Assembly: GCA_020847415.1 (NCBI GenBank)
Contig: JADLBZ010000200.1
Span: forward strand, 1 to 46,396
Reading direction: 5' to 3'
Origin: Planctomycetota bacterium
GTDB taxonomy: Bacteria; Planctomycetota; UBA8742; UBA2392
Length of the DNA stretch: 46,396 bases
Part shown: positions 7,138 through 46,396 of the stretch, one piece after another
How positions within the stretch are numbered: position 1 is the stretch's first letter
Layout of the letters: every line of letters begins with the position of its first letter
Program-made: the position numbers and the translations under genes
Notes under the pieces: generated by a model
Told to the model about the DNA's origin: nothing
The model's input: only the letters and a program-made list of their open reading frames with translations
Databases searched by the model: none

Positions 7138-7258
7138 CAGGCTGTCTAAGGACCCCCGCGCGCGCCGGCTGCACACACCGGACAGTTCAGTCTGAAATTA
7201 ACTCACCCGCGTTGCGCCCATGTTAAAAGGCACGCGCCCAACCTGCACAGAGGACTCC

Positions 7259-20623: not shown

Positions 20624-21229
20624 CTATCGGGGCAAGGTCACCCGCACCACCTTGTCGGCGTGCTCGATCACGGCTTTCACCCGGCGCGTCCACGCCGCCT
20701 GGAACCGCGCATGCGCGCCAGCATCGCCCGCCAGTGCGGGCTTCAGGTTCGCGCTGATGTCCGGCTCGTGGGGCAGCGCATCCGCAAGCGCCTCGACCAC
20801 CACACGGGCCCCGTTGTCGGCGCGCTCGAACGTGACGGCGCCAAAGGGTGCGGCTGTGGCATCAAAGCGCAACAGGTTCTGGCGCGACCAGTGGCCGGCC
20901 AGGCCGCGGAATCCCTCCACGCCGCCGGCGCCAGTGATGTAGCCGATCACCCGCCCCAGCGGGCCGTTGGCAAAAGCGTCCGGCGCCGAGTGCACGGTGA
21001 CGCGCACTCCGCCTCGCACGGGCGTGCCTGTCGGCCACAGCGCCTTCAGGCCCGCGCGGGCCATCTCAAAGGCGGTCGCCACGGTCGGGCACAGGTGGCC
21101 CGCGTAGCGCCCCGCGTCCTCCAGCGTGTACTGGATCGTGCCGCCTTCTTTGAAGCCGAGGAACTCCGCCAAGGGGTCCTTCACGGTGATGGGCGCGGCT
21201 GTCGCGGCTGCACGGTCCAGATCAGTCAT
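20624..21229 (-). CDS. Hypothetical protein, possibly FmdE-like
   Basis: The ATG at 21229 overlaps the upstream stop by 8 nt (ATGACTGA). GHLCPTVATAF resembles the FmdE HxCP motif. The functional call is weak. Confidence 0.55.
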   Translation of the reverse strand: MTDLDRAAATAAPITVKDPLAEFLGFKEGGTIQYTLEDAGRYAGHLCPTVATAFEMARAGLKALWPTGTPVRGGVRVTVHSAPDAFANGPLGRVIGYITGAGGVEGFRGLAGHWSRQNLLRFDATAAPFGAVTFERADNGARVVVEALADALPHEPDISANLKPALAGDAGAHARFQAAWTRRVKAVIEHADKVVRVTLPR

Positions 21230-23246: not shown

Positions 23247-23426
23247 GGGTCCTCCGGTGTGGCATCCACATTGAAATGGGGGGTGTTCGTTCCGTCCCGC
23301 TGTCGCGTCAGGCCGCGACTGGCGCTCGCGACACGCGCCCACCGGGCTTCTGTCGCTCACTGTCGCGGAAAAGACCGCAAGCGATGGATGGAGCTACCCC
23401 TTTATTCAACCGTGATGAACCTCCAG

Positions 23427-23465: not shown

Positions 23466-23554
23466 AAGCGCAACGAGCGTGCACGGGATTCACCTTTGCA
23501 GCAACCAGATAAACCGTATAAAGTGGCAAAAGGACCAAGCGCAAAGGAGTGCCC

Positions 23555-24328
23555 ATGCCCGCAGCCGTTGCTTTCGCCACCGAGGCCACCGTCCTGTTTG
23601 AGCAGGGGGACCACCGCTGGATCTGGCTGGGAACCGACGACGGCGCCGGCGAAGGCGTGCCCGCGAACCAGTACCTGGTGCAAGATCGCGGCCGCGGCCT
23701 GCTGCTGGACCCGGGCTCGGTGCTGGATTTTGCCCGCACCATTTCCAACCTCTCGCGCTTTGCCGAGCCTGCCACGCTGGATTACCTCTTCTTCAGCCAC
23801 CAGGACCCGGACGTTTCTTCGGGCGTGCCCATGTGGGCGGGCGTGACCAAGGCCAAGCTCGTCATGCCGGCCATCTGGGCGCGCTTCCTGCCCCACTTTG
23901 GCGAGTTTGACCAGACGCGCATCCAGGGCGTGCCCGACAAGGGCAGCACACTGGCGCTGGGCAAGTCCGAGCTGCGGGTGATCCCGGCGCACTTCCTGCA
24001 CTCCACGGGCAACATCGTGCTCTACGATCCTGTGGCCCGCTACCTGTTCACGGGCGACATCGGCACGGCCATCATGCCGCCCGGCGACAACAGCCTGTAT
24101 GTGCAGGACTTCAGCAAGCACCTCAAGCTGATGGAGGGCTTCCACAAGCGCTACATGGCCAGCAACGCCGCCTGCCGCAACTTCGTGGAGCGCATCAACC
24201 ACCTGGCCATTGACGCGATTGTGCCCCAGCACGGGCGCATTATCCGCGGCGACGACGTGAAGCGCTTCAAGGACTGGTTCCGCGAGCTGCGTTGCGGGGT
24301 GGACCTGCTGGCCGAGATGTATCGCTAG
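23555..24328 (+). CDS. Metallo-beta-lactamase-fold di-metal protein, ODP-like (oxygen-binding di-iron protein family candidate)
   Basis: The ATG at 23555 lies 5 nt after AGGAG (23545-23549); the track starts at GTG 23549. Metal-ligand-like [26 protein letters not shown] and VPQHGRII. A soluble MCP gene follows directly. Confidence 0.7.
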
Positions 24329-31028: not shown

Positions 31029-33821
31029 CTACTTGGCCGATTCGCGCTCTTTCAGCGCCTTCAGGGCGTCTTCAGAAACGCCGGCCGTCTTCAGGCCTTC
31101 GTCGGTAGCCTCGCCGTTCACTTTCGGGTTGCTGAGTTCCAGCGTCACCTTCACCTCCGCGCTCGTACCGGCAAACGAGATGCTCAGGGTCGCCTGCAGT
31201 TTGCTGACCAGGCTGAAGCCCTGGTGGCTGGTGCGGCCCAGTACGGAGACGGGCGTTTCGGCGAGGTCGCGGCGGGTCTGGACCGCCTGCCCGGGCACGG
31301 AGATGGTGGTCGTGACCTCGCGGCCCAGCGTCACCTCTTCCAGCTCGAGGCCGACCGGGTCGCCTTCGTGCTCAAGAAAACAGGGCCGGTTGATCCGGTA
31401 GGCATCCTCGCCGGCCTGGCCGACCCGGAACTCCGTGAGCTCGCGGCTGTCGCCCGACACGCGGTAGTACTCGGGCACAGAGTCCGTGCCGCGCAGGACC
31501 TTCACGTCCCAGGCCTCGGTTCTGGAGCCGGTGTCCACGGGGGTGAAGCTGAAGGTCGCTCCCGCGAAGCGCGACTCGAACGACGCCATCCCGGGCAACC
31601 AGGGCAGAAGCTCGGCTGCCCGCTGCGTCAGGGCGGCCTGAAGCCCCCGAAGCGACTTGCCTTGGGCATCCTCGGCACTCCGGAACGAGGTCTGACCGCC
31701 GCTGTACCAGACCAGCGAGCCTTCCACGGGCTGCACCGCCAAGGGGAGTTGCCCGGCTTCCACCGTCAGCTTGGCGTCCGCCAGCAGGCGGGTCAGGCCG
31801 TTTGACTCGGCTGAGTACAGCCTGGCCCACGCGGACTGGAGCAACTCGCGGGCCTGCGCCGCGTTCTTCTCGGCCTCAGCCTGTTTGGCATCGGCCTTGG
31901 GGGCCTCGGCCTCCTGTGCGTCAATGGCCGCAGTTGCGGGAAGCACACACAGGCAGGCGGCTGCAAGAACTGCCTTGCGCCGGCGCAGCAGCAGAAGTGC
32001 TGCGAGCAGGGCCAGTGCCGCCAGGGCAGAGCCGCCGCTGCCGGTGCTGCACCCGCCGCCGCCGCCCGAGCCGCCGCCCCCGAACTGGCCGGGGGCCGCC
32101 TGCTCGGCCAGGCGGAACACGAAGGTCGCCTGGCCGCCGTTGCCGTCCTGGGCCACCAGCGTCACGGTGTGCGTGGTCAGCGGGGCATTGAACAGACCGC
32201 TGGTGGGCTGCAGCACATACGGCACCGCGGCCGAGCCGCTGCTGAATTCGCCATTGTCGAGGCCCGTGGTGCCCACATTGGTGATGGTCGCGGCCACCGA
32301 GCAGGCGTCGCCGTCGGGGTCATCCACGGTGATGGCCAGCGCCAGTGCCGCCAGCGTCGAGCCCGGCGCCACGGCAATCTCGCTGCCGTTCACCACGTTG
32401 CTGCCGCCCGCGGTCAGGGCCAGCGTGGGCGAGTTGTTGGTGGGCGCCAGCCCCACCACAATGCTGAAGCCGAACGTGGTCACGCCGCCGCGGTAGTCGT
32501 CCGCCGTCAGCGTTACCTGGTGGGTGGTGCCGCCCTGGTTGAACGTGCCGCTGGCCGGGAAGAGGCTGTAGGGCGTGGCCCCGTGGCTGTGGGAGAATTC
32601 GGCCGTGGCCAGCCCCTGGGTCGTGACGTTGCTGATGGCGGCGGAAAGCTCCACGGAATCCGTGTCCGCGTCGCTGATGTCCAGCCGCAGGTTCAGGGCA
32701 GCCAGCGTGCTGCCGAAGGCGACGTTCAGGGTGCCGCCGTCAGTGACGGCGCCGCCGGCCGCCTGCACCTGTACTTCGGGGGCGTTGTTGCCCTGTGCCG
32801 GCAGCACAGTCAGGTAGAAGGCGAACTGCGCGGTGCCGCCTTTGCCGTCGTTGGCCTGGAACTGGAAGGTGTGCGTAACTCCGGCGCGGTTGAACTGCCC
32901 GCTGGTGGGTTGCAGCACATAGGGCGTGGCGGCGCTGGCGCTGGAGAACTCGCTGTTCAGGATGCCCTGGGTGGTTACGTTGCTGACGTTGCCGACCAGG
33001 CTGCACGGGTCGCCGTCGGCGTCGGCCACCGTGATGCGCGGGTAGAAGGCGGTCATCAGGCCGCCGTAGCTGCAGTTGATCTGCTGGCCGTTGCTGATGG
33101 GCATGTACAGGGTCAGCACCGTGACCGCGATGGTGGGCGCGTTGTTGGCGGTGGTCACCGGCGTGAAGCGCACGAAGCGCAGCCACGGCCACTGCGAGAC
33201 TGAGCCGTCGGGCTTGATGGAGCCGGGGTCCGCGCCGGGAAACACGGTCTGGCCGCCGCCGGTACCGGTGGGGCCCGAGATGGCGCAGGTGTTGGCGGCC
33301 GGCGAGTTGGGGCCCGCCGTGGCGGTGCCCGGCGCCGAGTACTGGAACTCGATGGCGCCGGTAGCGGTGTCCAGCAGGGCCGTCATGGTGAGCCGGGGCG
33401 GATTGACCGAGCCCGAGCCGGGGCTCAGCACGGTGATGTCGTCCCACTCCACAGCCAGCACGGGCGCCGTGTACTTCCAGCGGATGGCACCGCCCAGGTT
33501 CGGCTTCAGGTCTGCCCAGAAGGGGGCAACCACCAGGCCGGGTGCGGTGCTGTGCGCGGGCGTGCTGGAGGTAGTGGTGCCCTGCGTGCCCAGCACCAGG
33601 TAGCCGTTGGAGCCCACCTTGAATCCGGTGTAGGCCGTGCCGAAGTACGCAAACGAGAACCCGGGCGGGCTCTGGACTGCCGACAGTTCGTTGTCGCCCA
33701 GGGCCAGGGTGGTGGCGCCGGTCAGGGCCGTGTAGTTGGAAAGCGAGCCGCTGCTGACGGAGTATGTCTGCGCCGCCAGCGCGCCCGAGCCAAGCAGAAT
33801 CAACAGGCAAAGCCGAATCAT
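31029..33821 (-). CDS. Giant surface protein: signal peptide, NIDO-like domain, three cadherin-like (NNAP...DxDGD) repeats, internal Gly-Cys/TM/RRRK tag, 315-aa C-terminal domain
   Basis: The ATG at 33821 follows GGAGGAG. NIDO-like FSFAYFG...SNGYLVLG...VVAPFWADL. Repeats of about 115 aa begin NNAPTIAV, NNAPEVQV and NNSPTLAL. The tag is GGGGGCSTGSGGSALAALALLAALLLLRRRK. Confidence 0.85.
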   Translation of the reverse strand: MIRLCLLILLGSGALAAQTYSVSSGSLSNYTALTGATTLALGDNELSAVQSPPGFSFAYFGTAYTGFKVGSNGYLVLGTQGTTTSSTPAHSTAPGLVVAPFWADLKPNLGGAIRWKYTAPVLAVEWDDITVLSPGSGSVNPPRLTMTALLDTATGAIEFQYSAPGTATAGPNSPAANTCAISGPTGTGGGQTVFPGADPGSIKPDGSVSQWPWLRFVRFTPVTTANNAPTIAVTVLTLYMPISNGQQINCSYGGLMTAFYPRITVADADGDPCSLVGNVSNVTTQGILNSEFSSASAATPYVLQPTSGQFNRAGVTHTFQFQANDGKGGTAQFAFYLTVLPAQGNNAPEVQVQAAGGAVTDGGTLNVAFGSTLAALNLRLDISDADTDSVELSAAISNVTTQGLATAEFSHSHGATPYSLFPASGTFNQGGTTHQVTLTADDYRGGVTTFGFSIVVGLAPTNNSPTLALTAGGSNVVNGSEIAVAPGSTLAALALAITVDDPDGDACSVAATITNVGTTGLDNGEFSSGSAAVPYVLQPTSGLFNAPLTTHTVTLVAQDGNGGQATFVFRLAEQAAPGQFGGGGSGGGGGCSTGSGGSALAALALLAALLLLRRRKAVLAAACLCVLPATAAIDAQEAEAPKADAKQAEAEKNAAQARELLQSAWARLYSAESNGLTRLLADAKLTVEAGQLPLAVQPVEGSLVWYSGGQTSFRSAEDAQGKSLRGLQAALTQRAAELLPWLPGMASFESRFAGATFSFTPVDTGSRTEAWDVKVLRGTDSVPEYYRVSGDSRELTEFRVGQAGEDAYRINRPCFLEHEGDPVGLELEEVTLGREVTTTISVPGQAVQTRRDLAETPVSVLGRTSHQGFSLVSKLQATLSISFAGTSAEVKVTLELSNPKVNGEATDEGLKTAGVSEDALKALKERESAK

Positions 33822-33888
33822 GGTTTCTCCTCCGGTTCGTATGTTCAAACCGGCCCCCAAGCCGTGTCCGCGCAGTCACACTAACGTA

Positions 33889-33954: not shown

Positions 33955-35442
33955 ATGCCGGAAACGAATAGCACAGGCACGTTGCGCGAGCGCCTGCGCA
34001 CCCTGGCGGCCGCCCACTCGCAGGCCGAGCTTGCCCGCCGCACGGGCTTTCCCCCCGCCAACGTCCACCGCTTCCTGCGCGGCGGCAAGGTGCCCGCCGA
34101 GTTCTGCGAGTCGCTGGTGCGCGAGATGGGCGTGAACCCGGCCTGGCTGCTGGCCGGCGAGGGCACGGCGTACCTGGCCGACGTCACGGCAGAGACCGCC
34201 CGCATGGGCTCCAACCTGCTGGAGCTGGTCGAGGCCATGAGTGCCGTCTCGCGCATGCGCCTGGGATCGTTGACCGGCAAGCACCACCTGCGGGTGCTGC
34301 GCGAGCTCAGTGACGCCGTGTCGGAGCACGAGCGCCTGCGCCAGAAGTTGAACACCCAGAGCCTGCCCGTCTTTGCCAAGCTGCTGGAGGACCTGGAAGC
34401 CGCCCTGGACCGCATGAACCTGGAGCGCGCCGAGGACCTGCTGAAGGCCACCGAGCAGGTGGCGCGGCTGTGTGACGACGACGCCCTGGCTTTGCGGCTG
34501 GACGCCGCCCGCGCCCAGTACGCCTTCCTCACCGGCGACTCAGAGCACAGCGCAACCTGGCGGCGCAAGGTGTTTGTGCGCCAGATGGCAGGCGGCCTCG
34601 AGTTCAATGAGACGCGCCTTTTGCACGCCCAGTATCTGGTCATGGCGGTGCTGGCCACGGGCCGCATCGCCGAGGCCCTGCGCATCTGCCTGGCTGCGCT
34701 GGACCTCAGCGAGGGCAGGCGCACTCGCGCCTGGTGCGTGCTGCAGGCCACCGCGGGCGGCCTGGAAATGGACCTGGGTGACATGGCGGGCGGCATGGCT
34801 CGCATCCACCGCGCCCTTCCCGAGGCGCTGCCAGTGCTGCAGCAGCCTTACTCCAGCTACCAGGCCAAGTTCCTGCTCTTTGGCGGCCTTGGCGACATCG
34901 CCGCCTGCCTGGCCCTGAAGCCGTCCTCGATGCACCGCAGCACCGTGATCCTGCGTTTCGCCGCCTGGCTCGAAGATGCCGACGCCCTGCGCGTTGCAGC
35001 CAGGCAGTGCATCAGCCCCGACCATGCCGCGCGCCAGACGCACCTGCTGCCGGACAGCCCACCGGCGCTGCACGCCGCGGCCCTTTTGGACGTGCTGGCG
35101 GACAAGTCCCACCTGAAGCAGGCCGAGAAGCGCCTGGAAGCCGTGCAGGTGCGCGACGGGCGCCAGCGCTTCTTCAAGGCCGCTGTGCGCACCCAGTTGC
35201 GCCGGCTGGCAGGCGGGCGCAGCGCGCTGGAGGCCCTGAAGGAAGCCGATGCCGAGCTGCTGGCCCTGCCGCCGGGGGTAACGGTGTTGCCCGACTTCGC
35301 GGCTGTTCACTACCGCAACCTGCGAGAGCTGGGCGAGCGTGACCCATTGCTGCAGCCGCGCCTTGCGGCGGCCCGGGAGTTCTTCCGCAGCCACTACGCG
35401 CGCGGCTTTGCCTGCTTCAAGAGCTGGGCAGAAAAGGCGTAA
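33955..35442 (+). CDS. XRE/Cro-type HTH regulator with a large helical C-terminal domain (495 aa), paralog of 42263..43750
   Basis: The ATG at 33955 lies 8 nt after GGAGG. HTH QAELARRTGFPPANVHRFLRGGKVPAEFCESLVREMGVNPAWLLAGEG. Confidence 0.8.
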   Translation: MPETNSTGTLRERLRTLAAAHSQAELARRTGFPPANVHRFLRGGKVPAEFCESLVREMGVNPAWLLAGEGTAYLADVTAETARMGSNLLELVEAMSAVSRMRLGSLTGKHHLRVLRELSDAVSEHERLRQKLNTQSLPVFAKLLEDLEAALDRMNLERAEDLLKATEQVARLCDDDALALRLDAARAQYAFLTGDSEHSATWRRKVFVRQMAGGLEFNETRLLHAQYLVMAVLATGRIAEALRICLAALDLSEGRRTRAWCVLQATAGGLEMDLGDMAGGMARIHRALPEALPVLQQPYSSYQAKFLLFGGLGDIAACLALKPSSMHRSTVILRFAAWLEDADALRVAARQCISPDHAARQTHLLPDSPPALHAAALLDVLADKSHLKQAEKRLEAVQVRDGRQRFFKAAVRTQLRRLAGGRSALEALKEADAELLALPPGVTVLPDFAAVHYRNLRELGERDPLLQPRLAAAREFFRSHYARGFACFKSWAEKA

Positions 35443-37358
35443 CCCAGCAGCAGCAGGGCCAGGATCCCCGCCCCGGTCCCGCCTGCGTTGCAGCCGCTGC
35501 CTCCACCGCCGCCTGCCGCGGCAGGGGTGCCGCCTGTCCCCGGGGGAACCGGCCCGCCGCCACCCCCACCGCCGCCGCCGGAGCCCGCGCCGGCAGGGCC
35601 ATAGGCCGGCTGGCTGCTGCCGCGCTCGCAGGCGCCCAGGTCCGGTGCGGCACCCGCGAAGCCATCGGTGATATTGGGCAGGGCCACGCCGGCGTCCACC
35701 GCGCTGTTGGTGCCTGCAGCCAGCGCGAGATTGGCGGAACCCACCCCATAGGCCGGGCCGAAGCCCGTGGCGAACGGGTACGACGTGCCGCTGCGGGTGG
35801 GCACCGGTGCGTTCACGAACACGCCGTGGGTCACCAGCAGGCCGTGGGTCTCCTGGCCGGTGGCGGTGCGGAAGGCCGCCAGGGTGGCGTAGGTGGTGCT
35901 GCCGATGCGCCCGAAGTTGGCCGCAGCAGGCGACTGATACCAGCCGTTGTAGTCCCAGTCGTAGCGGGCGGCGATGGTGTCAAAGGCGATGGCGCCGGCG
36001 TCGTTGCTGCCCACGAAGAGGTTGTTGCGAAACAACCCGTGGCGCCAATCGCCGCCGCCAAAGCCGCGTTCATCTGCGCCCACAAACGTGTTGTTGAACA
36101 CCTGCAGCCCCGTGGGCGTGTTCTTGGGCGTGGTGCCCAGGGGGTGAAACTTGAGCGGCTTGAGCTGGCAGTTGTAGACCACGTTGCGGGCGATGATGGC
36201 GGGGCCCGCCAGCAACGGCTGCGCCGAGATGCCGCAGAGCACGTTGGTGAAGCGGTTTGCCAGCACGCGCAGGTTGCAGCGCGAGCTGTCCAGCTCGATG
36301 CCGTCGTCGGTGATCTCGTGGCACTCGTTGCCGATGAAGTCGCAGCCGCTGGTGTCCACGGTGTTGTCGTTGCCGCCGAAGCCCGCGCTGTCCCACCAGT
36401 CGTAGAACTCGTTGAAGCGCACGACGTGGCCGCGACCCACCAGGGTGCAGGCGTAGGAGTCCTGGCCGCGGCCGCTGCTCCAGTCGGCGTTGCCCTGCAG
36501 GGTGTTCTCGCTGATGAAGGCGCTCTCATGGCCCGCCCCCTGCAGCAGGATTCCCCCGGCCTCTGAGGTGGGCGAGACCGCCGAGCAGTCAATGCGGCAA
36601 CGCCGCACCACCAGGCCGCGCGTGGCTGTGCCCGAGATGGCGGTGCGCAGCGGCTTGCGCACGGTCAGGTTCTCCAGGTGCACGTACTGCGTGCCGGGAA
36701 AGGCCAGCAACGGCTGCGCGGTGCCGGCGCCGTCCACAACAACGGTGGCAGCATCCACCCCGCGCCAGACGATGGGGTTGCTGCTGGTGCCGCTGACCGA
36801 GAACGAGAAGGTGCTTGCGTGGGTGTAGGTGCCCGCCGCCAGCAGGAACACATCGCCCGGTGCCGCCGCCGCCTGGGCAGCAGCGAGGCCCTTGAAGGGG
36901 TCGGCCTGGCTGCCCGTGCCTCCGCCGGAGCCGGGCATCACGTAGCGCGTGCGGGGCGCGGCAGGATCAGCCGGGACGGCGCGCGTGCGCAGGCTGCGCG
37001 TCTGGACGCTGCTGCCGCCGTCGGCGTCGGCAAGGCTCAGGCGGACCTCGTACTCGGTGTCGGGCGACAAGCCGATCACGCTTCCCGCCAGCAGGTTGCC
37101 GGGGTCAAAGTCGTTGCCGCTGGTGGCGGCGGGCTCGACCCGCAGCAACGGCAGGGCCGCCAGCCAGGTCGCGGAGCCGGCGACGCGGTACTCGACGCCG
37201 ACGGAGCAATCAAGGTCGGCATCGCCGGTGATGGCCCAGCGAAAGCCGAGGCAGTTGCAGGTGGGGATCTCGTCGGTGATGGCGCCCGGCGTGGTCGCGT
37301 TCTGGGCGCACAGCGGCAGGGCCAGGCTCACGGACAGCAGGAGCAGCAACAGGCGCAT
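35394..37358 (-). CDS. Exported Fn3 + right-handed beta-helix protein with Gly-rich linker and C-terminal Gly-Cys/TM sorting tag
   Basis: The ATG at 37358 follows AGGAGG. Signal peptide MRLLLLLLSVSLALPLCAQ. Fn3-like VEYRVAGS...TEYEVRLSL. Beta-helix-like ITDDGIELDSSRCNLRVLANRF. Tail GGGGGSGCNAGGTGAGILALLLLGY. Confidence 0.85.
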   Translation of the reverse strand: MRLLLLLLSVSLALPLCAQNATTPGAITDEIPTCNCLGFRWAITGDADLDCSVGVEYRVAGSATWLAALPLLRVEPAATSGNDFDPGNLLAGSVIGLSPDTEYEVRLSLADADGGSSVQTRSLRTRAVPADPAAPRTRYVMPGSGGGTGSQADPFKGLAAAQAAAAPGDVFLLAAGTYTHASTFSFSVSGTSSNPIVWRGVDAATVVVDGAGTAQPLLAFPGTQYVHLENLTVRKPLRTAISGTATRGLVVRRCRIDCSAVSPTSEAGGILLQGAGHESAFISENTLQGNADWSSGRGQDSYACTLVGRGHVVRFNEFYDWWDSAGFGGNDNTVDTSGCDFIGNECHEITDDGIELDSSRCNLRVLANRFTNVLCGISAQPLLAGPAIIARNVVYNCQLKPLKFHPLGTTPKNTPTGLQVFNNTFVGADERGFGGGDWRHGLFRNNLFVGSNDAGAIAFDTIAARYDWDYNGWYQSPAAANFGRIGSTTYATLAAFRTATGQETHGLLVTHGVFVNAPVPTRSGTSYPFATGFGPAYGVGSANLALAAGTNSAVDAGVALPNITDGFAGAAPDLGACERGSSQPAYGPAGAGSGGGGGGGGGPVPPGTGGTPAAAGGGGGSGCNAGGTGAGILALLLLGYAFSAQLLKQAKPRA

Positions 37359-37524: not shown

Positions 37525-37554
37525 CACAGGGCCCGGCGTTCGCCGGGCCCTGTG
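37525..37554 (-). terminator. GC hairpin after the ECF-fusion gene
   Basis: 14-nt arms CACAGGGCCCGGCG / CGCCGGGCCCTGTG. The T-tail is weak. Confidence 0.45.
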
Positions 37555-37575: not shown

Positions 37576-40500
37576 CTAGCGAAGTTCCAGCTTCGCGCGT
37601 TCTCCCTCTTTCAGGGTAATCTCACCGCTGATTGGCTCGTGGCCCATCACGTCCACCACGATCCGCAACGTGCCCGCGGGCAGGGGACCGATCTCGCGGC
37701 CGTCCGGCGAGGGCTCGCCCTTACCCTCCAACAGTGCAGCCAGGCGGCCGTGCGGGCGGTACTCCACCCCATCCGCACCGAACACCCGCACGCTCGCGGA
37801 TTCCAGCTCGGCCCGGGGCAGGCCCTCCACCACCAGCACCGCGCGGGCCGCGGGAGTCACAGGCATTTCCAGCGACGCCTGGTTGCCCGAAACCTCTACC
37901 TCCGCGACCGTGGGTACCAGCAGCGGCCCGCCAACCTCCACGCGGTAGCGACCTGTCGAAAGGCCCTCAAACACGAGTTGCGCGTCCTTGCGCAGGAGCT
38001 GCGGCTGTGAGGCCAGGGCGATGTTGCTGCCCGCCGCGAACAAGCGAGCCATCATGACCAACTGCGGCTTGCGGGCTTCTGCATTCTCGAACATGGAGGC
38101 AGGCATGCCCTTCAAGGCCACCTTCAACGTGCTGCCGCCCGGCTCCAGGGCCAGTGTCACGGCCCGGTCCCGTGCCGTGTCCACGGTGATGCCGACTGTC
38201 GCACGGCCCGGTGCGGTAGCCACCAGGGCGTACTTGCCGCGCGGCATGCCCTTGAATACCTGGGTGCTGCCCTCGCCCTCAAGGCGCCGGGGCTCCATCA
38301 TGGGCTCCAATGGGTCCGGGCCGAAAGGATACTCCAGCACCGGCAGCACGTTCAGCCGCACGGTCTTCAGGTCCAGGCCCTCGCCCTTGATCGTGACCGC
38401 CAGCTCGTCGCACACCAGTGTGCGCTCCAGGACTTCGACGCCGTCCCAGCCGCTGAAGCGGACCTCGTGCCGGACCGCCCCGCTGCTGCCCCTGGGCATG
38501 ATCCACGCGTAGTAGTCGCCCGGCGCAATGCCGGAGATCTCGAAGCAGCCCTGTTCGTCCACGTTGCCGCGGTGCATCGCGTCCGAAGCGCCGGTACCCA
38601 TCAGGAACACGCCCTTGATTTTCAGGTCCGGGCAGGTGATGCAGCCCTTGAACACGTTGCCGGGAGCACGCTGCGAGTAGTCAATGTCCAGGGTTGCGGC
38701 CTGGCCCTCTGCCACTTCCACGCGGCGCTTTTCCTTCAGTGCGGGCGACGGCGTGTCGAGGTTCTTGATCAGCACCACATACGAGCCGGGCTCGATGCCT
38801 TCAAACAGATAGCGCCCTTCGGAGTCCGTCTTGCCGCTCTTCACGTGACGAAGTTCCGGGGTGCCGAGGAAGACCGACGCGTCGGCCATGGGCTTGCCGT
38901 CCGGCCCGGTTACGAGGCCGGAGATCGAGGTTCCGCCCAGGTTCAGGCGCACCACCAGGGGCTCATCGGCCACCAGCACAGAAACGCGCGCAGAGCCCTT
39001 TTCGTGGGAAGCGATCAACACGTAGCTGCCGGGGGCGACGCGCTCGAAGCGGATCTCGCCGGTCGCGGAAGGCTCCGGGCCGTAGCCGGCGTAGCGGGTC
39101 AGCTCGGGGTTCTCGGCATCGGCGGCGTAGAACAGCATGGCGCCCACTCCCTGCACCAGGGTCGCGCCGGAGCCGTCGTGCACCGTGCAAGTCACTGTGC
39201 TTCCCTTGTGCAGCACCAGCCGCAAGTCGGTCTGGTCGGCCGCAGCAGCCTCCACCTTCACCCGGCACTCGGCCAGGCCGGGAGCGCGGGCCACCAGGTC
39301 GGCAGGGTCGCCAGGGGCCACCGTGAACTCAAACCGGCCGAGTTCGTTGCATGCCAGGTACAGGCTGGTCTCGCTGGCACCCTTGTGATCGGGGGTCTCG
39401 CGCAGGCGCACCATGGCCCCCGCCAGAGGCTTGCCGCTCGCGTCCACCACCTGCCCGCCCACGCGGCGGCCGGCCGCCAGCTTGATGGTGCCGAGGTCCG
39501 TGCAGCCGTTGCCGGAAGGGACGGCAATCTCTACGGGCCGGAAGCGCGGGTGCCGCATGCGCAACTGGACCGGCGACTCCTCAGCCTTGTTCAGGTTCAC
39601 TGTGTGGCGGCCCTGCTCGTCCAGCTCGGTCGTCATGCCGCCACCCCAGCGGGTGTTGCCGGCGATGACGGTGATGTACCCGGGCAGTTCTTCCTGCAGG
39701 GGCGGGTCGGTGCTGAACACGACGTAACGGCCCAGCGACTCCATGACCAGCAGAGGCTTATGGCCGGCGCGAAGGGGCATCGCGGCGTCCTTGCCGCTGA
39801 CGTAGCCCGACTTGCTGGCCACCAGCGGAACCAGGCTGCCCGCGGCGTCCTTCTTCACGGCAGCGACCAGGACGAACTTGCCCGTAGCGTCGCTTACCGT
39901 GCTTTCCGGCGCGCGAGCCAACGGGATGCACTCCGCCGCGTCAATCGGCGGCGCATCTATGCCCGAGGCCGGCAGTGCAAACGGCCCAATGGCGCCCACT
40001 TCAGGAGTACCCACCCCAAACGACCCCAACATGCCGAATCGAAAACCGACGGGCTTCTCCGGCCCGACCTTGGCCACTACAACTCGGGCGCCCGCCACGG
40101 GCTTGCGGTCCTGGTCTACGACCGTCCCTTCAATGCGCAGTTCGCGCTCATCCGCGGCCGGCACAGAGCCGGCGCCGGCCGAGACTGAGTTGCCGTTGTT
40201 TCCGGCAGGGGTGCCCGCAGCCTGGTTGCCCTGGTTGGCGCGGTTCCCGGCCGCCTGCGTGTTCCCGGCAGCGCCGCTCTTGCGGCTGTTGGCCGGCTGG
40301 TTGTCCTGCGCGAGCGCAATCGGCCTTGTGTCACCGGCTGCCGGCGGTTCCAGCATCTTCCACGCCACCAGGCCGCCTCCTGCTACCAGGACCGCCAGCA
40401 ACGCCAGCATGAGCGCGATGTTGCCGCCTGTTTTGGTGCCAATACTTGCCATGATTGCTGCCTCCATTGTCCGTAACACGTTTTCCGGGACCTCCTGCCG

Positions 40501-41076
40501 GGCGGCGCCGGCCTGCAGGGCGGTCTCCAGGTCCACGGGGGCCGGCACCGTTGCCAGGCCGCCCGCCAGAAGCGTTTCTCTCAGTCGTTCCAGGGCCGTG
40601 CGCTGGCGCGTCTTGACCGTGCCTTCGGGTATGCCCAGCGCGTGTGCCGTTTCTGTGGCGGTAAAACCCTGGGCAAAGCGCAGCAGCACTACTTCGCGCA
40701 GGTCGTGCGGCAGCGCACTGGCGGCCTCAAAGGCCGCGGCAGCCAGTTCGTTGCTGGGGTTGGCCGTCATGGCGGACTCGGCGGCTTGGGCCTCGCGCTC
40801 GCGGCGGAGTTGCCGGTCGCGCTTCACATCGCGGGCCAGGTTGGTGAGCACGCGAAATGCCAGGGTGCGCAGCTCGCCCGCTTCGGCCAGCGACTTGCGC
40901 GACCGGTGCAGGCGAATGAACGCCTGCTGCACGGCATCCTGGGCATCGCCCGGGTCGCCCAGGAGACTGCGGGCATAGCGGTACATTCCGGGGCTCTCTT
41001 CTCGCACGAACCGGTGCCAGGCGTACTGGTCGCCGTTTCGAAGCCCCTCGCGCAATGGTGCGGTGCTGGTTGACAT
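37576..41076 (-). CDS. ECF sigma factor fused via one TM helix to about 900 aa of CarboxypepD_reg-like repeats
   Basis: The ATG at 41076 lies 6 nt after GGGAGG. Region 2 DAQDAVQQAFIRLHRS. Region 4 LREVVLLRFAQGFTATETAHALGIPEGTVKTRQRTALERLR. TM IALMLALLAVLVAGGGLVAW. N/Q/G-rich linker. Repeats such as IEGTVVDQDRKPVAGARVVV, VGGQVVDASGKPLAGAMVRL and ISGLVTGPDGKPMADASVFL. Confidence 0.85.
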   Translation of the reverse strand: MSTSTAPLREGLRNGDQYAWHRFVREESPGMYRYARSLLGDPGDAQDAVQQAFIRLHRSRKSLAEAGELRTLAFRVLTNLARDVKRDRQLRREREAQAAESAMTANPSNELAAAAFEAASALPHDLREVVLLRFAQGFTATETAHALGIPEGTVKTRQRTALERLRETLLAGGLATVPAPVDLETALQAGAARQEVPENVLRTMEAAIMASIGTKTGGNIALMLALLAVLVAGGGLVAWKMLEPPAAGDTRPIALAQDNQPANSRKSGAAGNTQAAGNRANQGNQAAGTPAGNNGNSVSAGAGSVPAADERELRIEGTVVDQDRKPVAGARVVVAKVGPEKPVGFRFGMLGSFGVGTPEVGAIGPFALPASGIDAPPIDAAECIPLARAPESTVSDATGKFVLVAAVKKDAAGSLVPLVASKSGYVSGKDAAMPLRAGHKPLLVMESLGRYVVFSTDPPLQEELPGYITVIAGNTRWGGGMTTELDEQGRHTVNLNKAEESPVQLRMRHPRFRPVEIAVPSGNGCTDLGTIKLAAGRRVGGQVVDASGKPLAGAMVRLRETPDHKGASETSLYLACNELGRFEFTVAPGDPADLVARAPGLAECRVKVEAAAADQTDLRLVLHKGSTVTCTVHDGSGATLVQGVGAMLFYAADAENPELTRYAGYGPEPSATGEIRFERVAPGSYVLIASHEKGSARVSVLVADEPLVVRLNLGGTSISGLVTGPDGKPMADASVFLGTPELRHVKSGKTDSEGRYLFEGIEPGSYVVLIKNLDTPSPALKEKRRVEVAEGQAATLDIDYSQRAPGNVFKGCITCPDLKIKGVFLMGTGASDAMHRGNVDEQGCFEISGIAPGDYYAWIMPRGSSGAVRHEVRFSGWDGVEVLERTLVCDELAVTIKGEGLDLKTVRLNVLPVLEYPFGPDPLEPMMEPRRLEGEGSTQVFKGMPRGKYALVATAPGRATVGITVDTARDRAVTLALEPGGSTLKVALKGMPASMFENAEARKPQLVMMARLFAAGSNIALASQPQLLRKDAQLVFEGLSTGRYRVEVGGPLLVPTVAEVEVSGNQASLEMPVTPAARAVLVVEGLPRAELESASVRVFGADGVEYRPHGRLAALLEGKGEPSPDGREIGPLPAGTLRIVVDVMGHEPISGEITLKEGERAKLELR

Positions 41077-41194
41077 GGTTGGCCTCCCGGGGCGCATTAT
41101 GCCCCGGACGCCAGCTACACGCGGCCCGCACTGGTTTCGATTTGGGAATCCGGACAAATCTTCGCGCCAGGTCCGGGGCCCGCAAACAACGCAA

Positions 41195-41218
41195 AGGGCC
41201 CGGCTTTCGCCGGGCCCT
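41195..41218 (-). terminator. Rho-independent terminator candidate after the coiled-coil gene
   Basis: The minus strand reads AGGGCCCGGC-GAAA-GCCGGGCCCT followed by TTGCGTTGTTTGCG. Confidence 0.6.
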
Positions 41219-41248: not shown

Positions 41249-42136
41249 TTACTTCACCGAGAAGGCGCCTTCCTTCTCGGCGGGTGCCGCGGCCGGGGCC
41301 TGGGCGGCCTCTCTGGCCTGCTGCTTGCGCTGCAGCTCCAGCAGCTTGGCGCGGGTTTCGTCGTCCAGGTCCTTGGGCGCCACACGCGAGGCCTTCAGGC
41401 GCTCTTCCTGCTCGATGCGGGCGCGCTCGACCGCACCCTTGACCTGCGTCAGCGTGTTCATGGCCTCGCCGTGCTCGCGGCTGGTGCAGCCGGCGCGGGT
41501 CTGGGCCAGCTCCAGCATTTCCTCGTTGCGCTTCAGGCGCTCGATTTCGCGCAGCAGGCTCTGGTACTCGGCTTCAAACTCGGCCTGCTCGGCCTCGATG
41601 GCGGCCAGTTCCACGCCGAGCTGCTCCTTCTCGGCGCCCAGCACGGCGCGCTCGGCCTCAATGTCCTGCAGGCGGGTGCTGTACAGCTCGCGGGTCTGGC
41701 CGATGCGGGCCACCAGCTTGTCGGCCTCGGCGGCTGAGTAGCGGCTGCCGCGGTGCTCAATCACGCGTTCCGTGCCGACGCCCGCGGCCACGGTGTCGCG
41801 CTGGTCCTCCAGGTAGCAGATGTCTTCTTCACACAGCCGCACGATGTCGGCGGCGCGGCCGGCTTCCGTGTCCAGGGTGGCAAGCTGGCGTTCCACCTCG
41901 CGGGCCTGGCTCTTCAGCACGGCAATCTGCTTGGGGTAGGTCTCGCGCAGCTTGGCGAGTTCCTCTTTCATGTCGTTCTGCTTGCGGATCAGCTCGTCAA
42001 CCTCGCCCTGGGCCATCTTCTGCAGGGCCTTGGCGGCGTCCTTGGTGCGCTGCTTGCCCAGCACGGCATGGGTCAGCGCGATCACGCCGACGCTGCACAG
42101 GCCGACGATCACGACAGTCTTGATGAAGCGTTTCAT
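41249..42136 (-). CDS. Membrane-anchored coiled-coil protein (295 aa)
   Basis: GGAGAG lies upstream of the ATG. N-terminal TM IKTVVIVGLCSVGVIAL. The remainder is long and heptad-like, rich in E/K/R/L/A. Confidence 0.75.
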   Translation of the reverse strand: MKRFIKTVVIVGLCSVGVIALTHAVLGKQRTKDAAKALQKMAQGEVDELIRKQNDMKEELAKLRETYPKQIAVLKSQAREVERQLATLDTEAGRAADIVRLCEEDICYLEDQRDTVAAGVGTERVIEHRGSRYSAAEADKLVARIGQTRELYSTRLQDIEAERAVLGAEKEQLGVELAAIEAEQAEFEAEYQSLLREIERLKRNEEMLELAQTRAGCTSREHGEAMNTLTQVKGAVERARIEQEERLKASRVAPKDLDDETRAKLLELQRKQQAREAAQAPAAAPAEKEGAFSVK

Positions 42137-42262: not shown

Positions 42263-43750
42263 ATGGCCAAAGAACCACCCGAAGCCGCGTTGCGCCAACG
42301 GCTGGCGTTTCTTGCTGACCGCTTCGGCCAGGCTGCTATCGCGCGCAAGACGGGCACCACCCGCAGCAACGTGCATCGTTACCTGCGCGGCACACAGGTT
42401 CCTGCCTGGTTTTGCACGGCCCTGTGCGATGCGTTTGCCGTCTCTCCCGCCTGGCTGCTGCAAGGCACGGGCAACCCATTGCGCACCGCCCTGCAACCCG
42501 GCACCGCGGACGCGGCCGACACGCTGCTGGAGCTGAACCAGGCCATGGATGCCGTGGCGCGGCTGCAACTGGGGGCGTTGGGCGGCGACCTGGACGCCCG
42601 CCGTGTGCGCGAGTTGCAGGATGCCGCGGCAGCCTCCGGGCGCCTCCGCAAACGTGTGTCGGATGCCGCCGGGCGCGCCCTTTCCGGGCTGGCCGGCCAG
42701 GTGGCCGACGCCATTCGCTCGGGTGCCATCACGCGCGCGCGCGGCCTGGTCAAGACAGGCGAACTGGTGGCGACCCTGGCGCCGGATTCGGACGAGTACC
42801 TGGACTTCCGCTACCTGGCCGCCGCCGTGGAGAATCTCAGCGGCAACGCCGTGCGGGCCCGCAATGAGGTGCGCCGTGTGCTGGTAGCCCTGGTGGCGGC
42901 GGGCCGAAACATTGACCGCGCTGTGCTGGTGCGGGTCTCGGCGCTTGCCTCCACAGCCTACAACCTGGGAGACATGGCCACCGCCCGCACCATCGCCGTG
43001 CTGGTGGCCGACCTGTGCGGGGAGGACCCCCTGCAGTCGCCCTTTGCCGCGAAGATCCAGGTGCTGCTCTCGGACATTGACGCGACCGAGGGCCGTATGG
43101 CCCAGTCCATGCAGACGCTCTCGCGCTATTACCCCTGCGCGTCACGCGAGTTCGCCGAGCAATGCGGCGCCAGCATGGTGCTGAACAGCTACTTCTGCGG
43201 CATTGCGGACTTCGACGGCGTGAGCCGGATAGCGGAAATGGGCGCGGGCAAGGCCTCTGCACTGATGCGCATAGCCGTGTGGGAGGAAGAGCCGGCCCAT
43301 CTCGCCGCCGTGCTGGAGGGCCCGCGGCGTTTTGAGGGCTGGCCCGAGCAAGGCGCGCACCGAACCCTGCAGCGCATGCAGGCGGCGGCTTCGGCTCTGC
43401 AGGCCGCGCTGGCGGGCAAGTACCGCGCGGCGGCGCTGCGTCGCGTGCTTGGCGAGTTACCCGGCAGCCCGCTGCAAAGCCTGCGCGACGACATCCTGTG
43501 CCTGCAGGTGGAACAGCGCGCGGGAGCTGCCGTGGCCGCCAGGCGCGTGGGCGGCCTGTGGGAACAGGTTGCAGCCTTGAAGCCGCTGGTCCTGGGGCAC
43601 CTGTGGGAGGCCACGCTGCATCGCGTGGCCCTGCGAGCCCCCCGGCAGAAGGCCTGGAATGCCCTGCGCGCGAGAGCGCTGGAGTTCTTTGCCCGCGCCG
43701 TAAGCAACGGTTCCGCGCGCTTTGCCGCCCTCGCTGCCGGGCAGCCCTAG
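42263..43750 (+). CDS. XRE/Cro-type HTH regulator (495 aa), paralog of 33955..35442
   Basis: Internal ATG at 42263 of track ORF 41753..43750. HTH QAAIARKTGTTRSNVHRYLRGTQVPAWFCTALCDAFAVSPAWLLQGTG aligns position for position with the paralog. Both proteins are the same length. Confidence 0.8.
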   Translation: MAKEPPEAALRQRLAFLADRFGQAAIARKTGTTRSNVHRYLRGTQVPAWFCTALCDAFAVSPAWLLQGTGNPLRTALQPGTADAADTLLELNQAMDAVARLQLGALGGDLDARRVRELQDAAAASGRLRKRVSDAAGRALSGLAGQVADAIRSGAITRARGLVKTGELVATLAPDSDEYLDFRYLAAAVENLSGNAVRARNEVRRVLVALVAAGRNIDRAVLVRVSALASTAYNLGDMATARTIAVLVADLCGEDPLQSPFAAKIQVLLSDIDATEGRMAQSMQTLSRYYPCASREFAEQCGASMVLNSYFCGIADFDGVSRIAEMGAGKASALMRIAVWEEEPAHLAAVLEGPRRFEGWPEQGAHRTLQRMQAAASALQAALAGKYRAAALRRVLGELPGSPLQSLRDDILCLQVEQRAGAAVAARRVGGLWEQVAALKPLVLGHLWEATLHRVALRAPRQKAWNALRARALEFFARAVSNGSARFAALAAGQP

Positions 43751-44085: not shown

Positions 44086-46396
44086 GTGCGAGTTCTTTTG
44101 TGTTTGATCGGCCTGCTTGCGCTTGGCCTTGGCCTGCCGGCCCTGTGCGGCCAGACCTACACCGCCTCCAGCATTGCCAACGCGTACTCAACCTACGATG
44201 TGAGCGCGACGGGCACGAACATAACGGGAAGCTGGTCGAGCAGGGACGATGGCAACCAGTCCGTGACCATGCCATTTGCCTTCACGTTCTTTGGCCAGAC
44301 TCCGTTCATCACGCCCTATACGCTGCGTATCTGCACGAACGGCTGGGTCTCGCAGACTGCGACTACTGCCGACCGCGCCACCCCTGCGACGCTTCCGTCC
44401 ACGGCTGCCCCGAACGGCTTCATCGCGGCGTTCTTCCGTGATCTCAGCTTCGGCACCACAGCGGCTCCGCTGGGGAACGCGTACACGCACACCATCGGGG
44501 CAGCCCCCAATCGTGCCTTCGTGGTCCAGTTTGCTGACACGCGCGTTTTTGGCGCTACAGCCACTACCTCTGTCTCGTTCTCCATTGTGCTGTTCGAGAC
44601 GACCAACGTTGTCGAGATCCACTACGGCACGATGACCACCCTCACCTACACCGGAGGGGTTGGCCTGGAGAACTCAACGGGCACTCATGGCATTGCCTCG
44701 CCGGCGGGCTTCAACATTGCGCCCGTAACCTCGGCGGCCTACCGCTGGACCCCTGCTGATGCCGCGGTCCTAACCGTCACCAACAACATGGGTACATCAA
44801 CGGGGCAGGGTATCTATGCCGGCGACGCGGGCGCCGGTGGCAACGGCACCAAAGGCGCCGGCCATGTGGTGGTCGCCAACACATCGTCCACTCTCGCCGG
44901 AAGCCTGATTTCGTTGACTTTCACGGCCAACGGGACCGGAAATGACGCCGCGGCCTACAGTGAGCTGGCCTTGTACCGCGACGCCAACGGAAACACGACC
45001 TACGAAAGCGGTACCGACGTGCTGGTCCAGTCCACGACAGCTTTCGGCGCGGACAACGGCACCGCGACATTTGCCATGAGCAGCGGGCTTTTGATTCCCG
45101 CAAGCAGTAACGCTACGTTCTTCGTCGTCGCCAAGTTCGCGGGTACTTCGCCGAACTGGCCGAACAGCGGCACTACGTTTCTCTACCGGTGTTCCAGCAT
45201 TGCCGTGGCCAGCAGCACGGTGGTCGGGCTGGTCAATGCCACGAACTGCTCCGGGTTCGTCATTACCTCGCCCCACGCGACACTGGCCGACACCAGCCCG
45301 GCGGCACAGGTCGGCTGCCAGACCGGCGCCACCAACCAGGTGGCTGGCTCGTTCAGTGTCGCCTACCCGAACGGCCCCACCGTCAACCTGGCCACGGTCA
45401 CCATCGGCCTGACTTTCGGCGCCGGCGGTGCCACGACCCATGTAACGCGCCTGGACATCTTCACCGACAGCAACGGCAACAACCAGATTGACGGCACCGA
45501 CGCCTCGGTGGGCAACACCACCACCATCGCAGCCAGCAACGCGGTGACCATCAACCAGTCCCTGGCGGCCGGCAGCACCACCCGCTTCCTCATCGTGCTC
45601 AGCTTCAACGCCACGGCGCCCACCAACGCCACGTACCAAGGCCAGGTCACGGCTGCCACCTGGAACTACACCACGGTGACCAACGCGGGCCTGCCCACCA
45701 CGCTCAGCGCGGGGCTGATCATCCAGGTCAACAACGACCTCAACGTCACGCGCAACGGGCCGGGCACATCCACCGCGGTGGACAACGACGCGCAGGGCAC
45801 GGGCAACGCGGGGCTGGTGATCCTGGACTTCTCGCTCAAGACCAACCAGGCTGCCTGGACGGTTACGGACATCACCTTTACCGAGAGCGGCACCGCCGAC
45901 GGCAGCACGGACATCAACTTCCTGGCCCTCTACGAGGACAGCACCACGGGCGGCACCGCGGGCAGCTTTGACGCCGCCGACGCCCTGGCGACCGCCGCGG
46001 CAGGCACGGCCTTCAGCGCCGCCAACGGCACCTATGCCGCCACGCTCTCCACCAGCGCCTGGGCGGTCAGCACCACCCGCCGCTTCTTCCTGGTCTGCAA
46101 GCTCAGCGGCCAGGCAACGGCGGGCGAGACCATCCAGGCCGAAGTCACAGCCCTGACCGCAACCACGGCGGCGACTCCGGCAGCAACGACCGGCGTGCCC
46201 ACCACGGCGGCCAACACAGCCCTGACCATTGACGTTCCCAAGCTGACGGTTGCCCTGGCCGGCCCCGGAGCCTACACGGCGGTCAACAACGACGCCCAGG
46301 GCCCCAACAACGACGGCCTGGTGCTGGCGGAAGTCACCCTCACCACCAAGAACGACCAGTTCAACTTCACCAGCCTCACCTTCACGGCCAGCGGCA
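44086..46396 (+). CDS. Giant surface protein (partial, at least 770 aa; runs off the window): signal peptide, NIDO-like domain, at least four repeats of about 165 aa
   Basis: Absent from the ORF track. GTG at 44086 lies 6 nt after AAGGAG (44074-44079). I translated the whole frame by hand and found no stop. N-terminus VRVLLCLIGLLALGLGLPALCGQTY...MPFAFTFFG...CTNGWV...FIAAFFRDL. The VNNDAQG motif recurs at about 45780 and 46285. Confidence 0.85.
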   Translation, partial: MRVLLCLIGLLALGLGLPALCGQTYTASSIANAYSTYDVSATGTNITGSWSSRDDGNQSVTMPFAFTFFGQTPFITPYTLRICTNGWVSQTATTADRATPATLPSTAAPNGFIAAFFRDLSFGTTAAPLGNAYTHTIGAAPNRAFVVQFADTRVFGATATTSVSFSIVLFETTNVVEIHYGTMTTLTYTGGVGLENSTGTHGIASPAGFNIAPVTSAAYRWTPADAAVLTVTNNMGTSTGQGIYAGDAGAGGNGTKGAGHVVVANTSSTLAGSLISLTFTANGTGNDAAAYSELALYRDANGNTTYESGTDVLVQSTTAFGADNGTATFAMSSGLLIPASSNATFFVVAKFAGTSPNWPNSGTTFLYRCSSIAVASSTVVGLVNATNCSGFVITSPHATLADTSPAAQVGCQTGATNQVAGSFSVAYPNGPTVNLATVTIGLTFGAGGATTHVTRLDIFTDSNGNNQIDGTDASVGNTTTIAASNAVTINQSLAAGSTTRFLIVLSFNATAPTNATYQGQVTAATWNYTTVTNAGLPTTLSAGLIIQVNNDLNVTRNGPGTSTAVDNDAQGTGNAGLVILDFSLKTNQAAWTVTDITFTESGTADGSTDINFLALYEDSTTGGTAGSFDAADALATAAAGTAFSAANGTYAATLSTSAWAVSTTRRFFLVCKLSGQATAGETIQAEVTALTATTAATPAATTGVPTTAANTALTIDVPKLTVALAGPGAYTAVNNDAQGPNNDGLVLAEVTLTTKNDQFNFTSLTFTASG

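Follow-up and report, generated by a model that had tools for sequence, protein, structure and literature searches.

A stretch of DNA of 46,396 nt from a Planctomycetota bacterium (contig JADLBZ010000200.1; hereafter the window) carries, on its minus strand, a gene for a 1166-amino-acid (aa) protein in which an extracytoplasmic function (ECF) sigma factor is followed by a short two-helix linker, a single transmembrane (TM) helix, a low-complexity spacer and a chain of beta-sandwich domains of ~860 aa. The fusion is genuine, and its layout recurs in a sizeable, uncharacterised family of what are, judging from their sequences, planctomycetal ECF sigma factors that are anchored in the membrane and have an array of beta-sandwiches as ectodomain. 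The protein is probably, with appreciable room for doubt, a one-protein transmembrane device, in which the tethered sigma factor would be sequestered at the membrane, freed by regulated proteolysis and able to activate its own promoter. All coordinates are positions in the window and residues are numbered from the ATG at 41076; the features are collected in Table 1.

Integrity of the fusion gene

The reading frame is unbroken from 37576 to 41157 on the minus strand, which bears out the single uninterrupted 1166-aa open reading frame (ORF) proposed in an earlier sequence-only reading of this DNA. The earliest possible start, TTG 41157, would give a protein of 1193 aa, and the ATG at 41076 gives 1166 aa. 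The latter is the best start, because GGGAGG lies 6 nt upstream of it and because the two other in-frame starts, TTG 41157 and ATG 41097, sit before or just after the promoter-like motif described below. The GC content at third codon positions (GC3) in the frame of the ORF is 0.66–0.94 throughout the gene and 0.76–0.84 over the junction of sigma domain, TM helix and spacer, and the best ortholog found (P0054) is collinear with the query in a single stretch, residues 1–1159 to 1–1159. By both measures no frameshift or stop is seen between 40300 and 40500, the interval for which the sequence-only reading had called for confirmation. The fusion of sigma domain, TM helix and ectodomain is one single gene, without sign of frameshift.

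The exact product has no match in a collection of 15 billion proteins under six possible starts (37576–41157), and the protein of the upstream neighbour is likewise without a match there; P0203, a protein of the same NCBI contig, is present in that collection. A metagenome contig that is 98–99% identical to the window (ENA ERZ27258500, k141_317033; L088) is missing 44 nt between two copies of an 11-nt direct repeat, ACCGGGCCGTG, at window positions 38158–38212 (minus strand; L088 positions 863–873). The deletion shifts the frame of the ectodomain at ~aa 959, and the gene is called in that contig as pieces of 353 aa and 132 aa. The deletion may be genuine variation in the population, with a truncated sensor as its product, or may reflect a misassembly.

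The sigma domain

From its sequence, the protein is an ECF (group 4) member of the sigma-70 family. Both conserved regions that the sequence-only reading had recognised scored above the curated Pfam thresholds in a hidden Markov model (HMM) search: Sigma70_r2 (PF04542) reached 44 bits against a cutoff of 24 at residues 24–89, and Sigma70_r4 (PF04545) reached 42.7 bits against a cutoff of 24.1 at residues 120–167, with the r4 and r4_2 models together spanning 118–167. The NCBIfam model for ECF sigma factors, TIGR02937, was matched with 73.3 bits (cutoff 42.9). All NCBIfam subfamily models remained under their cutoffs, the best being TIGR02983 with 97.8 bits against 141.55, and the top subfamily matches were SigE-like rather than FecI-like. 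No matches to sigma regions 1 and 3 were obtained in the Pfam and NCBIfam scans of the protein.

Structural comparisons agree with this assignment. The sigma part matched the sequences of SigE, SigL, SigW and RpoE in the PDB, and Foldseek matched sigma-4 structures with a TM-score, normalised to the target (TMt), of ~0.8. The motifs that contact DNA and RNA polymerase (RNAP), DAVQQAFIRL and GIPEGTVKTRQRTALERLR, are intact, and residues 1–200 contain no cysteine. The sigma domain of the full-length AlphaFold2 (AF2) model can be superposed on SigW of the SigW-RsiW complex (TMt 0.83; root-mean-square deviation (rmsd) 3.5 Å) and fits poorly to RNAP-bound SigL (TMt 0.39), which suggests that the modelled state is compact and inhibited-like.

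Linker, transmembrane helix and spacer

Between sigma region 4 and the membrane lies a linker of 45 aa, close to the ~50 aa estimated in the sequence-only reading. Two helices are predicted in it by AF2 (residues 180–193 and 198–213; predicted local distance difference test score (pLDDT) 74–88), and the second ends in the juxtamembrane motif (V/L)E..VMA.IG.K, immediately ahead of the TM helix. Residues E205 and M209 of this motif are conserved at ≥85% in an alignment of 33 sequences (the query and 32 homologs) and are invariant in a linker alignment of 20 sequences. The identity of the linker to that of the orthologs is 37–52% (38–41% for the full-length P0001-3 and P0054), which is near the level of the sigma domain. 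Residues 173–217 contain neither Cys nor His, so there is no zinc-finger anti-sigma (ZAS) motif, as the sequence-only reading had stated. The linker matched no anti-sigma family in Pfam, zf-HC2 and RskA included, even at E≤10, and comparison of a linker profile with the PDB and of linker sequences with Pfam (E≤10) returned nothing meaningful.

The hydropathy of residues 218–240 peaks at 2.6 on the Kyte-Doolittle scale, with no comparable segment elsewhere in the protein, supporting the proposal of one TM helix. At least two Gly or Pro residues occur in 75 of 98 TM segments from homologs, many of which have GG or GGG, and GxxxG-like motifs are present in nine of the 98. The TM helix is followed by the spacer of residues 241–309, which was described originally as N/Q/G-rich and of low complexity; it is rich in A, G, N and Q and is predicted by AF2 to be disordered.

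The ectodomain

The C-terminal part of the protein is predicted to be extracytoplasmic. CarboxypepD_reg (PF13620) is matched there with 141.7 bits (cutoff 32.3), in two to three significant repeats, and CarbopepD_reg_2 is matched at residues 540–624. These above-threshold repeats, together with an all-beta, transthyretin-like fold, are what is expected of a PF13620 repeat protein. The full-length AlphaFold model has a mean pLDDT of 70. According to its secondary structure, residues 503–1166 are almost unbroken all-beta, with roughly eight sandwiches, and residues 310–410 form a first beta domain with a disordered insert. Foldseek matches of the ectodomain are to Ig-like, CnaB-like and MG-domain arrays, such as those of pilins, SdrD and alpha-2-macroglobulin.

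Two statements of the sequence-only reading are refined by these results. The ~900 aa of beta-sandwiches proposed there become ~860 aa that are mostly all-beta, but residues 336–389 and 411–501 were modelled with low confidence, and ~150 residues of the ectodomain are of uncertain structure. The many CarboxypepD_reg-like repeats stand as roughly eight sandwiches in the AF2 model, but the sequence alone identifies just three to four units as CarboxypepD_reg. The domain count was taken from the AF2 secondary structure; a self-built repeat HMM, which is circular, recovered five to six units.

Homologs and conservation

A word-indexed search identified three full-length orthologs, with 32% identity over 99% of the length, and ~20 more remote proteins whose domains come in the same sequence. 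An exhaustive search of 1.84 billion cluster representatives gave P0054 (1170 aa) as the best ortholog. An N-terminal sigma domain in a protein of more than 400 aa was found in 102 of the 198 relatives retrieved (median length 1046 aa), and in 100 of these 102 fusion homologs a TM helix follows sigma-4, with a median gap of 46 aa. The survey of homologs that had been proposed along with the sequence-only reading therefore shows that the layout recurs. Among 48 members scanned with Pfam, sigma domains were present in all 48 and CarboxypepD_reg in 36, with He_PIG, PEGA, Big_1 and SdrD_B as other extension domains. Named members, for example MEZ5992033.1, are annotated merely as [quoted passage not shown].

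Identities by region were computed against the full-length orthologs P0001-3 and P0054. The sigma domain is the best-conserved part, with 41–56% identity (46–54% to these full-length proteins), and the beta domains are 26–42% identical, collinear and nearly gap-free. Identity falls to 13–38% in the TM helix and to 10–24% in the spacer (10–22% to the full-length orthologs). Collinear ectodomains in orthologs whose sigma domains are 46–54% identical indicate that the fusion predates the divergence of these proteins and that all of its parts have been maintained.

A search of contigs from genomes with the full protein gave one match, to an unrelated CarboxypepD_reg locus. A search of metagenome contigs with a subfamily alignment gave 80 generic ECF loci, none matching beyond residue ~184; the sigma-4 pattern lacks specificity, and generic ECFs therefore dominated the result.

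A candidate autoregulated promoter

A bipartite motif, CAAATCG-N16-CGTG(T/G)(A/T), occurs with identical spacing upstream of the gene in six of seven orthologous loci (the window, L003, L004, L085, L086 and L087), and the seventh (L002) has an exact CAAATCG with a spacing variant. The motif lies 35–80 nt 5' of the start codon. Five of the six fixed-spacing loci are unrelated, L004 and L086 being near-duplicates; with the exception of that pair, the encoded proteins are 30–45% identical, and the spacers, neighbours and other intergenic DNA are unrelated. The motif with at most one mismatch has no other copy on either strand of the 639 kb of fetched loci, a control set to which 80 ordinary ECF loci belong. 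The window holds a single exact copy, upstream of the sigma gene, and looser matches in it (at most three mismatches) are at chance level, with 11 found against 5.85 expected.

ECF -10 elements typically contain a CGT core, and a bipartite motif of fixed spacing has the appearance of an ECF promoter. ECF sigma factors usually transcribe their own genes (PMC5826349). Taken together, these features allow the motif to be read as the cognate promoter, and suggest that the sigma gene is autoregulated from CAAATCG-N16-CGTGTA.

For one homolog, the 775-aa P0004 in L003, the annotated start at L003 3033 (MYVIEGRLSV...) overlaps the -10-like CGTGTA. Translation probably begins instead at a GTG 27 nt further down (MNEIEHLRP...); this start comes with the ribosome-binding site GAGGG, and the protein read from it aligns with the other orthologs.

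Comparison with known systems

The closest parallel in topology is IutY of Pseudomonas putida, a hybrid of sigma and anti-sigma factor assigned to ECF243 (PMC5411451; PMC8999054), which is the only protein of such topology with a demonstrated mechanism. IutY is silent until it is cleaved by Prc and then by RseP, releasing a free sigma fragment of ~23 kDa, and it is constitutively active when its periplasmic part is truncated (PMC5411451). Both proteins have an N-terminal ECF sigma domain (cytoplasmic in IutY and, by prediction, here), one TM helix and a C-terminal extracytoplasmic domain, with no separate anti-sigma factor. Whilst the periplasmic part of IutY, an anti-sigma domain of FecR type, communicates with the adjacent TonB-dependent transducer IutA, the protein in this study has a CarboxypepD_reg-like ectodomain, a sigma domain that is not FecI-like and a planctomycete host. 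Neither a FecR domain nor a TonB-dependent receptor was found with Pfam in the protein or in 17 window genes (seven flanking it and ten others).

Long TM-containing extensions are also known from the actinobacterial groups ECF48, ECF52 and ECF53 (SCO4117 is an example), and proteolytic release has been proposed for these groups (PMC5826349; PMC8999054). In those proteins a zinc finger (ZAS, HxxxCxxC) lies between sigma-4 and the TM helix, whereas the present linker is free of Cys and His and does not match zf-HC2; the promoter motif, CSGYN-17-SRHA as against CAAATCG-N16-CGTGTA, also differs, as do the ectodomain and the phylum. The planctomycetal group ECF57 combines WD40-like repeats with two conserved cysteines linking sigma-2 and sigma-4 (PMC8999054); compared with that description, the present protein lacks Cys in residues 1–200 and has no WD40 match.

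Within the same phylum, a large clade of ECF sigma factors with big and varied C-terminal extensions has been described (Pinto & da Fonseca 2020; PMC7671368). The protein studied here shares with it a core of sigma-2 and sigma-4, more conserved than the very long extension that follows. The published extensions differ between close paralogues, which was ascribed to duplication and fortuitous insertion (PMC7671368), whereas here the extension is collinear among orthologs with sigma cores only 46–54% identical, suggesting that this fusion is old and has been maintained. The novelty claimed in the sequence-only reading, where comparison was made with short extensions, was thus overstated, since long extensions with TM helices and extracytoplasmic domains had already been described, among them those of IutY, ECF48/52/53 and the planctomycetal clade. 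A full-text literature search for an ECF sigma factor with a CarboxypepD_reg extension, which did not extend to supplementary classification tables, returned only an unrelated paper on the type IX secretion system (T9SS).

In its logic, the fusion would resemble the two-protein systems RpoE-RseA and SigW-RsiW, which have a single-pass anti-sigma factor: the sigma factor would be held at the membrane, with an extracytoplasmic sensor and probable regulated intramembrane proteolysis, and the candidate promoter is of ECF type, with autoregulation likely. It differs from them in that sigma factor and membrane sensor form one polypeptide, in which no anti-sigma domain is recognisable. The design principle of placing sigma factor, TM helix and sensor in one chain is already known, and no concept is overturned; what is new, at the level of this analysis, is the combination of parts, the juxtamembrane motif and the candidate promoter.

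Proposed mechanism and alternatives

The suggestion that this sigma factor is its own membrane tether is supported by the covalent anchor and large ectodomain, and by the lack of both a ZAS motif and a nearby anti-sigma gene. At rest, the sigma domain would be held inactive at the membrane by this tether, possibly also by packing of the linker onto sigma-2 and sigma-4. The flexible spacer would connect it to a rod of about eight or nine beta-sandwiches in the cell envelope or periplasm. A cue from the envelope or from outside the cell, acting on the ectodomain, would lead to its trimming (site-1 cleavage), with the disordered spacer as an accessible site for the first cut, and a site-2 protease (S2P) would then cut inside the glycine-containing TM helix. 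The freed sigma domain would join RNAP and transcribe from CAAATCG-N16-CGTGTA promoters, including its own, which would give positive feedback, and others elsewhere in the genome. S2P proteases such as RseP favour TM substrates with destabilised helices, so the GG or GGG in the TM helices of many members counts in favour of proteolytic release as supporting, non-decisive evidence.

Several points weigh against this account. The AF2 model of residues 1–260 is not compact (TMt 0.51 and rmsd 17.7 Å against 5wuq_A), and AF2 may prefer a compact state for any ECF sigma factor. The linker, as compared with Pfam and the PDB, resembles no known anti-sigma domain. Gly-rich TM helices are common and non-diagnostic, and the locus has no linked protease gene. 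A different sigma factor could recognise the promoter motif, and there is no second copy of it among the searched loci, hence no regulon member was identified.

The alternative that survives best, although we regard it as unlikely, is that the sigma factor works while membrane-anchored, like ToxR, CadC and TcpP. The ectodomain would then control oligomerisation or conformation without cleavage, and the tethered sigma domain would recruit RNAP to membrane-proximal DNA. Membrane-integrated one-component transcription activators do exist, the linker of ~45 aa with its conserved helices could serve as a signal-transmitting stalk, and the GxxxG-like motifs found in a minority of TM helices could mediate dimerisation. 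A sigma factor, however, must enter a core enzyme of ~400 kDa and stay with this enzyme while the promoter is opened. The literature consulted documents no sigma factor that is active while bound to the membrane, and IutY, the only characterised protein of such topology, requires cleavage (PMC5411451).

A slightly less likely alternative is that the two-helix linker is itself a minimal anti-sigma element in cis, comparable with the short class II anti-sigma domains of CnrY and NepR, and that inhibition is relieved by a conformational change without proteolysis. The conservation of the linker nearly at the level of the sigma domain, with E205 and M209 invariant, would fit such a role, as would its pLDDT of 75–88 in the full-length model, above that of the TM helix, and the compact sigma domain in the same model. 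Against it, neither sequence nor profile comparison gave any similarity of the linker to an anti-sigma domain, and even a relieved sigma domain would still be tethered to the membrane.

It is improbable that the sigma-like domain, in the manner of PhyR, is a decoy or vestige without a part in transcription and that the real role of the protein is structural or adhesive, through the beta-sandwich array. A weak match to PhyR_sigma2 in Pfam (E 0.0017; 18.8 bits, cutoff 27) and the existence of secreted ectodomain paralogues with signal peptides and no sigma domain (P0005, P0006 and P0014) can be cited for it. The PhyR_sigma2 match is below threshold, whereas both sigma domains are over theirs, with intact DNA- and RNAP-contact motifs; the sigma part is the region of highest conservation, and a dedicated ECF-type promoter-like motif co-occurs with the gene. 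We can set aside almost entirely an artefact of assembly, frameshift or annotation uniting two separate genes: the exact product is missing from the protein collection although a contig-mate is present, and the deletion in L088 splits the gene further downstream, but the layout is common to 102 independent homologous clusters out of many assemblies, the codon-position GC is unbroken over the junction, P0054 is collinear, and the L088 deletion lies in the ectodomain, away from the junction of sigma domain and TM helix. Each of these alternatives has less support than proteolytic release.

A more far-reaching proposal can also be made. The protein and its ~30 closest clusters at 50% identity might constitute an undescribed Planctomycetota ECF group, with a two-helix Cys-free module, a dedicated promoter and a rod-like ectodomain; the (V/L)E..VMA.IG.K module might be a new minimal cis anti-sigma or cleavage-control element; and the rod of 8–9 sandwiches, ~30 nm in length, might span the enlarged planctomycetal periplasm and report envelope spacing or a surface polymer. 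Taken jointly, we consider these three suggestions possible but rather doubtful.

ECF sigma factors with on-board sensors may be seen as the "one-component systems" of the sigma world. Planctomycetes have dozens of ECFs per genome, most without a known signal or target, and this family offers a compact test case, with one gene, a candidate promoter that is ready for use in a reporter, and a short linker with two invariant residues. The promoter motif provides a direct route to regulon prediction from a complete genome, and the self-contained design could serve as an orthogonal switch from membrane to transcription.

Table 1. Features of the sigma factor gene and its surroundings (positions in the window).
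Feature	Position	Strand	Remarks
Coding sequence of the 1166-aa fusion protein	37576..41076	-	stop codon 37576-37578
Sigma-70 region 2, aa 24-89	40810..41007	-	PF04542; AF2 pLDDT ~90; PDB sequence matches
Sigma-70 region 4, aa 118-170	40567..40725	-	PF04545 and PF08281; Foldseek
Two-helix linker, predicted cytoplasmic, aa 173-217	40426..40560	-	AF2; conserved juxtamembrane motif at its end
Single TM helix with GGG, aa 218-240	40357..40425	-	hydropathy
Disordered A/G/N/Q-rich spacer, aa 241-309	40150..40356	-	pLDDT 27-46
Predicted extracytoplasmic domain, aa 310-1166, CarboxypepD_reg/transthyretin-like beta-sandwich chain	37579..40149	-	Pfam, AF2, Foldseek
-35-like element CAAATCG	41138..41144	-	exact copy upstream in 7/7 orthologous loci
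-10-like element CGTGTA	41116..41121	-	16 nt after the -35-like element
Shine-Dalgarno sequence GGGAGG	41083..41088	-	6 nt 5' of ATG 41076; read from sequence
GC-rich palindrome AGGGCCCGGC-TTTC-GCCGGGCCCT	41195..41218	.	between upstream gene and promoter; T-rich tail on minus strand
Near-identical GC-rich palindrome CAGGGCCCGGCG-TT-CGCCGGGCCCTG	37527..37552	.	starts 24 nt after the stop codon
TM and coiled-coil protein	41249-42136	-	neighbour
Secreted right-handed beta-helix protein	35394-37358	-	PF13229, DUF1565
Big_9 protein	31029-33860	-	neighbour
Paralogous helix-turn-helix (HTH) regulators, ~500 aa	33736-35442 and 42263-43750	+	30% identity over 334 aa, E 5e-36

Neighbouring genes

Neither an anti-sigma gene nor another sigma gene was found near the fusion gene in the window or beside any ortholog. 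The sigma gene is flanked exactly, with one on each side, by two GC-rich palindromes of the form (C)AGGGCCCGGC(G/T)TTCGCCGGGCCCT(G). The first of them probably terminates the gene upstream, and the one downstream probably the sigma gene. The pair may represent similar terminators, a repetitive extragenic palindromic (REP)-like element or the two ends of a cassette that was inserted here. A further hairpin, unlike these two, is present at ~27064. A separate ribosome-binding site, GGAGGA, serves the beta-helix gene downstream, and this, together with the bracketing palindromes, suggests that the sigma gene is probably monocistronic.

The neighbouring beta-helix and adhesin-like genes had been put forward in the sequence-only reading as a possible regulon. 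This is not supported, as no neighbour has the promoter motif and the neighbours are not conserved beside the orthologs; the strong hairpins that bracket the sigma gene and the separate ribosome-binding site downstream also disfavour it. When seven window neighbours were compared with the ortholog loci by tblastn, no conserved synteny was detected. The single weak match was between the gene downstream of P0004 (L003 5617–6918) and the gene for a large secreted protein at 44086–46395 (plus strand) of the window, with 34% identity over 168 aa, and is the sole hint of a neighbour shared between loci.

In the product of the beta-helix gene, poly-Gly, a hydrophobic helix and then a basic tail (...GILALLLLGYAFSAQLLKQAKPRA) form the C-terminus, an arrangement that resembles a sorting or anchor signal without a PEP motif. 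Both HTH paralogs have an N-terminal HTH_31/XRE-type domain and a long uncharacterised C-terminal part, and lie among genes for large secreted proteins.

Further away, the genes at 2804–4495 and 4912–7137 (both plus strand) encode proteins with a signal peptide or TM helix and one CarboxypepD_reg domain each; by BLAST, these products have no detectable relation to the ectodomain of the sigma factor. They are followed by two genes for large proteins (7220–10147 and 10147–12015) with no Pfam match. At 21222–23360 (minus strand), a 712-aa fusion combines NnrS, a haem-copper protein of the membrane associated with the nitric oxide response, with two DUF1858 domains and ScdA_N. It adjoins a gene for an ODP-family protein of the metallo-beta-lactamase fold (23549–24328), and together the two suggest a nitrosative-stress or iron-sulfur repair cluster.

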